Shown in pieces: positions 2,330 to 5,997 of a stretch of 32,000 nucleotides of DNA; positions within the stretch are counted from its first letter, which is position 1; the number at the start of each line of letters is the position of its first letter. This DNA is from Desulfotalea psychrophila LSv54 (GTDB lineage Bacteria > Desulfobacterota > Desulfobulbia > Desulfobulbales > Desulfocapsaceae), in assembly GCF_000025945.1 (NCBI RefSeq), contig NC_006138.1, positions 3,390,001-3,422,000 of the forward strand, in the 5' to 3' direction. A program made the translations under genes and the position numbers. Below the pieces are notes generated by a model. It was not told the DNA's origin and did no database searches. It saw only the letters and a list, made by a program, of their open reading frames with translations.

Positions 2330-2653
2330 GTGGAATTTCTTACCGCCACGGTCTTTTCTGGTGTTTTGTATGACATGCTCAAGTGTGGAGCTGGTTTAGC
2401 ATCTGATAATATAAAGAAAAAACTACAAGATTGGTTGATCGACGACAATATGGCCAGCAACATTGAGGCTGAACTGGCAAAGCTACAGCTATCAGATGAA
2501 ATGAGTGAATCTGCCATTGCCAAGAAATTAACCAGCTCAGACGAAATTACAAAGATCTTAAAAGAGATAAAACCTATCAATCAAACTACGATTACACAAA
2601 CACACTCTGGTACTGGAGACAATATAGCTGGAAATAAAGTTATTAATAACTGA
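2330..2653 (+). CDS. Small 107-aa protein. It has a hydrophobic/amphipathic N-terminal helix, a helical acidic middle and a C-terminal G/N/Q/T-rich motif that recurs in the downstream protein. It is a candidate executor/adaptor of a two-gene module.
   Basis: AAGGAG (2318-2323) lies 6 nt before the GTG at 2330. The TGA stop (2651-2653) overlaps the next ATG (2653-2655) as ATGA. The N-terminus is MEFLTATVFSGVLYDMLKCGAGLA and the C-terminus is TITQTHSGTGDNIAGNKVINN. I recognise no known family. Confidence 0.8.
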   Translation: MEFLTATVFSGVLYDMLKCGAGLASDNIKKKLQDWLIDDNMASNIEAELAKLQLSDEMSESAIAKKLTSSDEITKILKEIKPINQTTITQTHSGTGDNIAGNKVINN

Positions 2654-5600
2654 TGAGTAACAGCATGACGGAACCCATTTCTCAATATCATTATGGCCAA
2701 GGAGACAATGTTAGAGACAAGATCATCAACCGGGCTATCTCTCCCAAGGCCCTCCTAACTCCCATCCACTCTGTACTAACAAGTTTACGACACCGTCAAC
2801 TAGAACAAGCGAAAGAAAAGCTAACCACCATAAACTCCACATCAAGCCTAGATACAGATACCATCGCCCTACTTAACATCATTCAGCTTTTGGTTAAGTT
2901 GACTGAAGATAACCCTCCAGCAGATAGTTACCAGCTATTAAACTCCTACCTCGCAACAGATCCAGATCAATTCTGTCGAGATATTGCTATCTCTGCACAA
3001 ATCCAACTTGATGCCAAACATGACAACCACCTTGATGCTCATACACGATATACCGCAAAAAAGAGACAAGGGATATACACCAATGAAGCATATTATGCCC
3101 TCATAGCAAACCTTGATGAAATAAAGAGCGTTTTCAATGAACAAAGATTGCAACTTACTGAGATTGAGTTGTGTGGTTTAGTACGTGGAGCACTAAGGCT
3201 AGAAGCTCCTGATGAAGCTCTGGAAATAGCAAAACTCCTACACTCTATTTTGCCAGACCTTAACAGCAAAACGCTTATCCTTTTCACAAAGATATGTCTA
3301 TTTAATAAAACAATCTCCGAATCTAGCGAAGCTAGACATTATTGGAGCATAACTGCAAGTAGTCGCAGAAACCTACTTAACCTATGCGACGAAACCGTTT
3401 GTCTAATGAACAACTGCAAGGGTAACGACACTAGAGTAGTCAACATAGCCACATCATTACTTAACCACGTTTTGGGTGAATACCAACCACTGGCAGACGT
3501 TTGTTGGGATTTCATTTCTAAGGTAGAAGCACAATCACCTGATATCGCATCTGAAATTCGCCGTATATATGAGCGAAAAAGAAGAACCACAGGAGGGATA
3601 TCAGGCAAAATAGCCAAAGCTCAAGAAGATCCAGCATTCAAAAGTGACACCATAAACGAAATAACGAAATCAACAAACATCTCTGCAGAAGACTCCTTTC
3701 TACTAAGTAACATTGGAGATCAAGACACCATCCAAAAATGGCTTGGCTCCGGTGGAGCCATATCAAATACGAATCAGCTTGTAAGTGACGTTGCCCTGCT
3801 TGAACTAAAAACGATGGCATGCAAGGACACCAAGAAAGCAGTTGCAGAACTCCAAGAGGCGGCTGATGAGTTCACCAATAAACATCAAGCTGACTTGGGC
3901 AGCTTAGATCCTCGAAACGCGCTCTCTCTAGCTGAGAAACTCTTCAATCTAGAAATTTTTCCTGCTGCATGCGAGTTACTAAAACCGCACATTCCTAGCA
4001 GTGATATCTGGGCCTCACCCATTCTTCAATGTTATCTCAATGCCCTACTTTACAGCCAGAAAATGATGTCACTGAATTCAATTTTGGAAAAAATTGATAT
4101 AAATGACTGGGATGACGTTATTTGGCAAATAAAAGCACGTCAACTTGGCCATGGCCACAACTATAAAGATGCCATCAATGCCGCAGAAAAAGCATTAGTA
4201 TATTCAAACACATCACGTTACAGTTGGTCTCTTCTTATTTATTTTCACAACCAAAATGACAGCAACAAAGACTTAATCTCCCAAGTGGTGAATCGGATTC
4301 CAGATGAAATATTCTCCCAACCATCTGAGATAGGTTACCAGCTACTGTCTGAAATTGTAAGAATAGGAGATTTTTCGAGAGCCGAGTTTTTTATAATTGA
4401 CTGGTTTATCAAAAACCCCGATCATTGTGCCATTCCTTTCACAGACTTCTACCTTTCGATAATTTTAAAGGGCCACGAAGAACTCAATCCATCGCCTACC
4501 GTGGGTGACTGTCATGGCGGGCTACAATATAGCTGTGATGGGAAAATCACGACTAAACTGTTAGTCACGGAGAAAATCGCACCACACCCATCTTTGATCA
4601 ATATTTCATCTCCACTGGGACAACTACTATCGGCAATGGATATAGAGGACACCCAACAACATGGCATGATGGATATTAAGCTTATCAAACGAGAACCACC
4701 CTATATAGCCATATTCAACATTGCATCGTCATTAAGAGAGGCTCTCAATGATGGTTCTGACTGCTTCTACTCATTCACATTGCCTGAAGACCCAAACGAG
4801 ATGTTCAGGGCTTTGGAGCGAAAGCTGACTCCCTCCCAAGGCAACAAAAGCACCCTCCTCGCCAACCCCAAAATGCCACTATTCCTAAAAGGCTTCTACA
4901 ACAATAGCCACGAAATAGTAAAGTCAGCGTTCCAACTCCTCACAGCAAAAACAGCTACTAAACAGGATTTACCAGCGTTCGGCGAGGAAAATCCAGAGCA
5001 AATCATTCTGGATGTCTATTCTGCAAGCTACCTGGCACTGACTGGTTTAAGCGACAATTTGATAAATTCTCACATTAAAATTGCCATAACTATCGAAACA
5101 AAATTCTATATAAAACAGTGGCTAGAAGATGTAAACCGTGAGGATTATCTTACCATAGGCGTTCACCCTGAGGGGGGCCTCTTACGCTGTACCGCTGAGG
5201 ATATGCGTCTACAAACAGTCGATATACAAAAGGCTCTCAACCAAATACTAACTAAATCTGAGGTAATATCCCCGAATTTGATTGATACCCCACCAGAAGT
5301 ATTGAAAATAGAGGACGCTGTAGACCCATCAGTACTTTCCAGCCTTAAACTTTCAATAACAAACAACATTCCTTGGCTATGCATTGACCTAATTTTTGCA
5401 CAATTATCAAAAAGTTGTGGGCACCCTATTGTAAATGCGCTCCATTTTTTTACATTCCTGGACAGTAATCTGCCAATTGAGCATTTGCATAAAGGATTAT
5501 ACTTACATGTCACAGCGGGATTACCGTACCCCATAACTTACGAAAACATAATCCAGCTCAGCAAATCAAAAGAAGAACATGCACATTACTTTTTAGCTGA

Positions 5601-5997
5601 AATATTAAGAATGTATCCTAATGCTTCCCCTAACACCAACGCCACAATACAGTTCTTACATCATATTCTTATAATAATTTTAACAAATGCCTATGAAGAT
5701 GGAGAAATACTAAAGGGCCTTAGTGTGACCAACCCAAGAAATAATGGGTACACAGAACGTGTATTTAACGCATGTTGTGATGTTTCAATGGAGTGTAAAG
5801 GTAATGAAGAGGCACATTATAAGCTTGCTATGCTATTAACCCACCTCTTTCACACATTCCGCGAAATAACCCCAATAATCAATCTTATACGCTATATGGC
5901 TTCGCGTTTCATTATTGGTCATATTATGTGTGCAGAAACCATCAATAATCATGTTATTGATCTAATCACAAAAATAAGAAACAACGAGATATCATAA
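2653..5997 (+). CDS. Giant 1114-aa protein of unknown family. It carries an N-terminal copy of the upstream protein's motif and a long helical, TPR-like region. It also has a GreA/GreB-C-terminal-like segment (aa ~617-681) and a weak PIN-like signature (aa ~783-936). No P-loop is present.
   Basis: An uninterrupted 3.3-kb ORF in AT-rich DNA, whose ATG overlaps the upstream stop. The N-terminus reads [20 protein letters not shown]. I found no GxxxxGK[ST] anywhere in the translation. [20 protein letters not shown] resembles the E. coli GreA segment [31 protein letters not shown] ... [18 protein letters not shown] resembles PIN motifs 1 and 3. Confidence 0.85.
   Translation: [1114 protein letters not shown]

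Follow-up and report, generated by a model that had tools for sequence, protein, structure and literature searches.

A probable Desulfotalea psychrophila member of the two-gene anti-phage system GAPS6, alias Bab/Agp

The two-gene cassette described here lies in a stretch of 32,000 nucleotides of the Desulfotalea psychrophila LSv54 genome (assembly GCF_000025945.1, contig NC_006138.1, positions 3,390,001 to 3,422,000), which is called the window below and to the first letter of which all coordinates refer. The cassette consists of two co-oriented open reading frames (ORFs) on the + strand, ORF1 at 2330..2653 (107 amino acids) and ORF2 at 2653..5997 (1114 amino acids). It is very probably the D. 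psychrophila member of the two-gene anti-phage system GAPS6 (GapS6a/GapS6b), alias Bab/Agp, a system of abortive infection via amyloid templating, in which ORF1 would be the GapS6a or Bab-like small effector and ORF2 the GapS6b or Agp-like sensor of the TPR-GreA/B-C-PIN type. A first-pass annotation, made from the raw sequence, had placed the two ORFs at exactly these coordinates and had quoted the N-terminal sequence of ORF1, MEFLTATVFSGVLYDMLKCGAGLA, correctly; the start codon of ORF1 is GTG. A Shine–Dalgarno sequence, AAGGAG (2318..2323, + strand), can be read directly 6 nucleotides before this GTG. A consensus scan for promoters gave fewer sites than shuffled sequences, and no promoter is claimed.

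At the junction of the two genes, the same annotation had described an ATGA stop/start overlap. The sequence is cTGATGa instead, in which the stop codon TGA (2651-2653) and the ATG (2653-2655) share one nucleotide (TGATG) and not four. The database copy of ORF2 that carries the GapS6b name at NCBI is 1110 amino acids long, a length that fits a start at the second ATG at 2665 (MTEPIS...), leaving a spacer of 11 nucleotides. Both starts, 2653 and 2665, are compatible with the data. The N-terminal motif of ORF2, described below, is retained with either of them, and under either start both genes are tightly packed.

ORF1 begins with a hydrophobic helix (residues 1-24; 2330..2401, + strand; mean Kyte-Doolittle value +1.05) that aligns to helix 1 of Bab and is putatively membrane-inserting or pore-lining. 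The helix contains G11, which corresponds to Bab G11, and this column has a glycine in 14 of the 16 homologs aligned, the window protein and Bab from E. albertii among them. The following residues 25-82 form a mildly acidic helical segment (12 D/E versus 9 K/R) that completes a Babybell-like domain. The tail (residues 83-107; 2576..2650, + strand), INQTTITQTHSGTGDNIAGNKVINN, is rich in N, Q, S, T and G and contains a BASS11-type motif that is common to the N-terminus of ORF2. Within this motif, Q90, G94 and K103 are invariant among the 16 homologs, while H92, G96, D97 and N98 are nearly so; the counterpart of N98 in Bab is N100. A hydrophobic N-terminal helix followed by an acidic segment had been noticed in the first-pass annotation and likened to the build of HeLo- and Bell-type executors, a comparison that stands up well in database searches. 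Residues 1-102 of ORF1 match the 102-position Pfam model HetE-N (PF20701) over its full length (E = 5.1e-41), and residues 1-82 match PDB entry 9H9V, 'Babybass' (E. coli Bab 1-90; E = 5e-14), which is the sole solved structure of the family of ORF1. On the basis of these sequence matches, ORF1 is assigned to the HeLo/Hell/Bell-related class of helical executors (HetE-N, 'Babybell' 9H9V).

The organization of ORF2 was read from an AlphaFold2 model of the entire protein, with a mean predicted local distance difference test score (pLDDT) of 72.8, and from a separate AlphaFold2 fragment model of residues 606-930. This fragment was modelled apart because TPR proteins dominated the Foldseek search with the entire protein and masked the small domains. 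All segments lie on the + strand. Residues 1-29 (2653..2739) are a disordered tail (pLDDT 26-34) with a BASS11-type motif, in which G17 and N19 are invariant and Q11, H13, G15, D18 and K23 nearly invariant among 12 homologs. Residues 31-605 (2743..4467) are modelled as an all-helical TPR-like solenoid of approximately 33 consecutive helices, and the best whole-model Foldseek matches are the TPR solenoids Ctr9, Ski3, IFT-A and subunits of the APC/C (E = 9e-6 to 1e-3). Both models contain a beta-rich domain at residues 620-681 (4510..4695) that resembles the FKBP-like C-terminal domain of GreA/B, with GreA/GreB 2pn0 (probability 1.00), the RpoB-GreA model 9a7t (1.00) and Gfh1 2etn (0.94) as Foldseek matches; it carries the invariant motif S653-P-L-G-x-x-L659. 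An alpha/beta PIN nuclease domain follows at residues 783-921 (4999..5415), with D787, D831, D850 and D912 as invariant acidic residues. Residues 785-921 match the Pfam family PF20698, 'PIN domain associated with the TPR-GreAB-C-PIN system' (E = 4.8e-25), and Foldseek relates the domain to PAE2754 1v8p (target TM 0.64, probability 1.00), VapC toxins, HARP RNase P and SMG6. The remainder of the protein is a conserved helical C-terminal region in the model (residues 929-1109; 5437..5979), which lies within the match to the GapS6b family model and has G1089, H1090 and N1098 among its conserved positions.

The GreA and PIN folds were recovered solely by fold comparison with Foldseek, with E-values that are weak (4e-3 to 0.3) and probabilities of 0.94-1.00, while a phmmer search of ORF2 and a profile of residues 606-930 gave nothing useful against the PDB sequences. 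In the models, the folds of the small domains are exactly the two that are predicted in literature, i.e., GreA/B-C and PIN. The absence of GxxxxGK[ST] from the large protein, already pointed out in the first-pass annotation, was confirmed and extends to the other forms that were looked for, as neither [AG]xxxxGK[ST] nor GK[ST] is present in the 1114 residues. A reading of ORF2 as a STAND NLR was rejected: the protein has no Walker A motif, it matches no NTPase in Pfam or NCBIfam, and there is no such fold among its Foldseek matches.

Curated family models exist for both proteins. ORF1 scores 136.7 bits against the NCBIfam model NF047935 (antiphage_GapS6a), with residues 1-103 aligned to a model of 104 positions, and ORF2 scores 1328.4 bits against NF047936 (antiphage_GapS6b), with residues 11-1098 aligned to a model of 1089 positions. 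The curated NCBI cut-offs are 90 and 850 bits, respectively. In a protein search, ORF2 is 100% identical to an entry named 'GapS6b family protein [Desulfotalea psychrophila]' by NCBI, and for ORF1 there is an entry of 99% identity that bears the D. psychrophila locus tag DP2998. As an annotated member of a published anti-phage family the locus is already known, and the earlier statement that neither product could be recognised does not hold against the databases. Judged by sequence, GAPS6 and Bab/Agp are two names for one family and one defence system, because Bab from E. albertii passes the GapS6a cut-off (120.3 versus 90 bits) and E. coli P0011, taken here as Agp, passes that of GapS6b (1061.6 versus 850 bits). 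E. albertii Bab is identical to the 9H9V sequence over residues 1-81. With regard to the window proteins, ORF1 is 43% identical to E. albertii Bab, and ORF2 shares 30% identity with E. coli P0011, across 98% of its length, and 29% with the Vibrio GapS6b P0012. The GAPS6 work is not cited in the Bab/Agp preprint (10.1101/2024.11.07.622273), and the equivalence of both is perhaps not explicit in literature.

Three studies have dealt with this type of system. The TPR-GreA/B-C-PIN ('TGP') conflict architecture with variable N-terminal effectors was predicted by Kaur, Iyer, Burroughs and Aravind (eLife 2021; PMC8195603), with HetE-N as one of 13 alternative TGP effectors. The window pair has the same constant core of TPR, GreA/B-C and PIN and the same HetE-N effector (PF20698, PF20701), but its HetE-N is a separate gene product that is tied to the core by a shared short motif. 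Secondly, a Vibrio system of two genes, GAPS6, was expressed in E. coli, where plating dropped by 2-4 orders of magnitude for several coliphages; the authors required both genes to count a system (Mahata et al., 10.1101/2023.03.28.534373). In the window, both genes are present, adjacent and co-oriented on the + strand, the two-gene layout with a large protein containing TPR and PIN is the same, and both proteins pass the family cut-offs over their full length. GAPS6 was discovered as cargo of Gamma-Mobile-Trio (GMT) islands in Vibrio, which is no prerequisite for membership, and the host of the window is not a gammaproteobacterium.

The third study concerns the pair Bab (109 amino acids) and Agp (1094 amino acids) from E. 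coli ECOR25 (Ibarlosa et al., 10.1101/2024.11.07.622273). The Bab/Agp motif forms amyloid and acts as a prion in E. coli. Upon T5 infection, assembly takes place in an Agp-dependent way and Bab moves to the cell periphery, resulting in abortive infection. According to the preprint, Bab and HET-S from fungi can functionally replace each other. Defence is abolished by the mutations G11K and N100P in Bab and by N12P, S628L, L634P and D762N in Agp (10.1101/2024.11.07.622273). Each of these six positions is conserved in the proteins of the window. The four Agp residues correspond to N19, S653, L659 and D787 of ORF2, in alignment columns that are invariant in all 12 aligned homologs. The resemblance extends to the adjacent, co-oriented genes of near-equal size (107 and 1114 amino acids in the window), to the same Babybell small protein, with hydrophobic helix 1, G11 and a C-terminal BASS11, and to the same order of an N-terminal BASS11, TPR, GreA/B-C and PIN in the large protein. 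Unlike in E. coli, the host is a psychrophilic sulfate reducer (Desulfobacterota) and not an enterobacterium, the locus adjoins a tRNA-Arg gene and does not lie in a prophage hotspot, and the motif in the large protein is one residue shorter than the one in its partner.

The same logic is found in the Bell/NLR and HET-S/NWD2 pairs of fungal and bacterial STAND NTPase systems, in which neighbouring genes encode a large receptor and a small helical executor that targets the membrane, with a short amyloid motif at the N-terminus of the receptor and at the C-terminus of the executor, as in the window. Compared to Bell/NLR pairs, the receptor in the window has neither an NB-ARC or NACHT NTPase nor a Walker A motif, and uses a TPR-GreA/B-C-PIN scaffold instead. 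In this respect the reasoning of the first-pass annotation was largely right, as it had considered a signalling pair whose sensor is not a STAND NTPase. A common terminal motif, of the type known from amyloid signalling, is present in the two proteins.

ORF1 at its C-terminus and ORF2 at its N-terminus share a motif of the BASS11 type that can be written as H.G.GDN[IV]..K.IN / H.G.GDN[IV]...K.IN. The ORF1 tail ITQTHSGTGDNIAGNKVIN, with the core THSGTGDNIAGNKVIN, has a local alignment score of 47 with the head of ORF2, compared to 17.2 +/- 3.7 for shuffled sequences, of which 1 in 5000 reaches 47. The Asn of GDN in both window motifs corresponds to Bab N100 and Agp N12. Both motifs differ in length, as residues 15-24 of ORF2 (2695-2724; GQGDNVR-DK) are one residue shorter than residues 94-104 of ORF1 (2609-2641; GTGDNIAGNK), the third Gly being lost. 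Within the alignment set of 12 homologs, this Gly is kept in P0002-P0009, and the gap is common only to Vibrio P0012.

In related loci, the motifs of both partners vary together. The pairs L011 and L012, from Vibrio and Pseudomonas, have the same deletion of one residue in both partners (GDNVVNK). In an Oleispira pair (L016), both motifs have switched to N.RG.NI..QNN, with a score of 46 between the cognate motifs and of at most 34 between non-cognate ones. Such co-variation is expected if both motifs must template each other. Along with the disorder of the ORF2 tail in the monomer model, it gives indirect support to amyloid formation and cross-seeding.

The Oleispira pair, from a metagenome-assembled genome (MAG), has its genes at 5632-5952 and 5962-9273 of that locus, with the motifs VQTNVRGTNIGIQNN and SQVNRFGQNIAVQNN, which have diverged together. 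Its small protein scores 89.1 bits, just below the GapS6a cut-off of 90, and its large protein scores 854.9 bits, just above the 850 of GapS6b; the motifs may represent a distinct motif class within the family. In two Marinomonas loci (L014:5941-6060 and L017:5941-6060), the N-terminus of the large proteins has the GDN motif twice in tandem (FIGDNVVGGNNATQSHTGSGDNVLGNK), resembling the two pseudo-repeats of HET-s-type motifs.

Linkage of the two genes was determined in 20 loci encoding relatives of ORF2, scanned with one genome per species. They stem from Burkholderiales, methanotrophs, Escherichia, Vibrio, Marinomonas, Shewanella, Oleispira, Pseudomonadales and a Turicibacter MAG. A Bab-like ORF is located directly upstream of the large gene in all 19 scanned loci that have an intact 5′ end. 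It is also present in the closest metagenomic relative (L021), with the same 1-nucleotide overlap as in the window, which brings the total to 20 of 20. These upstream ORFs encode proteins of approximately 105-111 amino acids, counted from the Bab-like start, and stop 4-19 nucleotides short of the large gene or share 1 nucleotide with it (L006 and L021). Neighbourhood conservation had been proposed as a check in the first-pass annotation, and it speaks for the pair. In every related locus examined, from Beta- and Gammaproteobacteria to the Turicibacter MAG, the small gene is linked to the large one and the terminal motifs are paired.

For the D. psychrophila pair itself, the observations cover its membership of the family, its domain architecture, the motif common to both proteins, the conservation of every experimentally important residue and strict linkage. 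By analogy with Bab/Agp of E. coli, the compared copies being 30-43% identical, it most likely works by amyloid templating and membrane attack with abortive infection as the outcome. The 1114-amino acid protein would be the sensor and would probably monitor RNA polymerase via its GreA/B-C domain. Phage infection would cause the N-terminal motif of ORF2 to adopt the amyloid fold, which could then template the matching C-terminal motif of the 107-amino acid protein. This templating would free the hydrophobic helix 1 of ORF1 from its helical bundle and allow it to reach the membrane, where it would kill or arrest the cell ahead of the production of phage progeny. Both the signal that is sensed and the substrate that is cut by the PIN domain are hypothetical even in E. 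coli.

Several points weigh against assigning the cassette to GAPS6, alias Bab/Agp, with this mode of action. All phenotype data come from E. coli or Vibrio alleles and not from the D. psychrophila allele, and identity to the former is only 43% for the small protein (E. albertii Bab) and 30% for the large one (E. coli P0011). Templating across the shifted registers of the ORF1 and ORF2 motifs is putative. The role of the PIN domain is hypothetical, as the Agp PIN mutant destabilised the protein, according to a source that is a preprint (10.1101/2024.11.07.622273). The three ORFs upstream of the cassette match no defence or phage model in PADLOC-DB v2.0.0 or PHROGs, so no defence-island context is apparent. 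Finally, neither ORF1 nor ORF2 has a match in PADLOC-DB v2.0.0 (2023), although this is not a contradiction, as it reflects the date of a library that is older than the GAPS6 paper.

Other explanations can be considered for the same set of observations. In the model stated by Kaur et al. (PMC8195603), a protein such as ORF2 would mainly be a first-line, non-suicidal defence, with the GreA/B-C domain docking into the secondary channel of RNA polymerase and the PIN domain cutting the extruded phage transcript, while HetE-N would only be a back-up effector in case this fails. GreA/B-C-like and PIN folds with invariant key residues are indeed present in ORF2, and mutants in GreA/B-C lose defence in E. 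coli. However, no activity of Agp independent of Bab was seen against T5 or the T145 phages, and defence needed the amyloid motifs of both proteins (10.1101/2024.11.07.622273). Such an RNA polymerase-docked nuclease has a minor but real chance of being the right account; it is compatible with a Bab/Agp-type system and does not exclude it. The order of a small gene followed by a gene for a PIN protein, their tight coupling and the VapC toxins among the Foldseek matches are reminiscent of vapBC, which would make the PIN protein a toxin and the small upstream protein its antitoxin and autoregulator. This toxin–antitoxin reading is rejected as highly improbable, because the small protein is a homolog of the HetE-N/Babybell executor, without a DNA-binding antitoxin domain, and because the PIN domain (783-921) is embedded in a TPR and GreA/B-C protein of 1114 amino acids and is not a stand-alone toxin of approximately 130 amino acids. 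Moreover, toxicity in E. coli needs Bab and Agp together, and it is the small protein that is toxic alone when overexpressed (10.1101/2024.11.07.622273), which is the reverse of an antitoxin.

The cassette might also be a decaying or inactive copy, acquired horizontally, in which the register mismatch between the motifs stops signalling. Its foreign base composition and the deletion of the third Gly in ORF2 but not in its partner, a gap otherwise seen only in Vibrio P0012, would agree with this. Yet both ORFs are intact (107 and 1114 codons), every functional residue that was mapped is conserved, the two bit scores exceed the family cut-offs by far, and motifs without the third Gly occur in the pairs from Vibrio and Pseudomonas, in each case in both partners. 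Given two intact and well-conserved ORFs, an inactive remnant is very unlikely. The first-pass annotation itself had read the pair as an undescribed signalling architecture with a new sensor scaffold, for which the missing P-loop and the lack of a match in the 2023 PADLOC library could be cited. This proposal is refuted: the proteins pass NCBIfam and Pfam models, and the architecture was predicted (PMC8195603), its phenotype tested as GAPS6 and its mechanism dissected as Bab/Agp in three papers, the structure of a small homolog (9H9V) has been solved, and NCBI uses the GapS6b name. The more general part of that claim, a module of the defence or abortive-infection type, is supported by GapS6a/b family membership and by homology to Bab/Agp.

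As a member of GAPS6, alias Bab/Agp, the cassette matters little as a discovery but is of some use as a data point. With it, the range of the system extends to a psychrophilic, sulfate-reducing deltaproteobacterium (Desulfobacterota) and the two names under which one system has been described are linked, while the natural co-variation of the partner motifs supports the templating model. It also illustrates that an amyloid-signalling pair made up of a Bell/HeLo-like executor and a non-STAND receptor can be correctly inferred by reading raw sequence. Apart from the equivalence of GAPS6 and Bab/Agp, the residual interest lies in the length mismatch between the partner motifs and in the psychrophilic host. 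It is conceivable, but rather doubtful, that the Desulfotalea pair is a working case of heterotypic amyloid signalling between motifs of unequal length, GDNVR-DK in the receptor and GDNIAGNK in the effector. If such unequal motifs do cross-seed, the BASS11 fold would tolerate a register shift between template and substrate. The psychrophilic host would allow the temperature dependence of amyloid nucleation to be studied in a natural, cold-adapted system.

The cassette has a GC content of 40.3%, with 36-38% at third codon positions (GC3), compared to 49.1% in the rest of the window and a GC3 of 47-54% in housekeeping genes. The first-pass description of AT-rich DNA next to a tRNA gene is accurate, as a tRNA-Arg(ACG) gene, which is context and not part of the system, is located at 6266..6342 on the minus strand (ARAGORN; Rfam tRNA, 68.8 bits), 268 nucleotides downstream of ORF2 and with its 3′ end toward the cassette. 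Low GC content and a position beside the 3′ end of a tRNA gene are in line with horizontal acquisition. An att-like repeat of part of the tRNA-Arg 3′ end is absent from the window, where only two full tRNA copies match, and no direct repeat was found there that is suited to delimit an island, the left border of which may lie outside the window. GMT genes and a prophage are not evident in the window either, in which 2.3 kb upstream of the cassette are visible, based on general family models that include no GMT-specific one. None of the five ORFs at 230-5997 matches PHROGs.

The 2.3 kb to the left of the cassette contain an ORF for a Cys-rich protein of 139 amino acids (230-649, + strand) with weak zinc-ribbon matches, a gene for a DUF6261 protein (775-1524, minus strand; E = 6e-26) and a 42-nucleotide tandem repeat. 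The repeat, at 1752-2013 (array approximately 1710-2037), has 6.2 copies with 85% matches and can also be read with a period of 126 nucleotides. It lies within the overlapping ORFs 1665..2075 (+ strand) and 1675..2124 (minus strand), encoding repeats such as IYKCIKPQTPKK; these ORFs have no family match, and the array is located approximately 300 nucleotides upstream of the cassette. Downstream of the ORF2 stop codon, a purine-rich non-coding region of approximately 220 nucleotides (5998-6220) extends to the terminator hairpin of the tRNA gene (6225-6259). This region matches no Rfam family and contains no convincing + strand terminator for the cassette; in the entire window, Rfam matches are confined to two tRNAs.

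To the right of the tRNA gene all genes are of the housekeeping type, including those for an EB_dh-like haem protein, catalase, lutABC, RNase E/G, lptD, aroA, aroE, aroD and pyrD. A second copy of tRNA-Arg(ACG) is located at 13883-13959. Both copies are part of a duplicated sequence of 126 nucleotides (6217-6342 and 13834-13959; 94% identity) that consists of the tRNA-Arg gene and approximately 49 downstream nucleotides, including the terminator hairpin. Together they flank a 7.6-kb segment that encodes the EB_dh-like haem protein, a membrane protein, catalase and lutABC.

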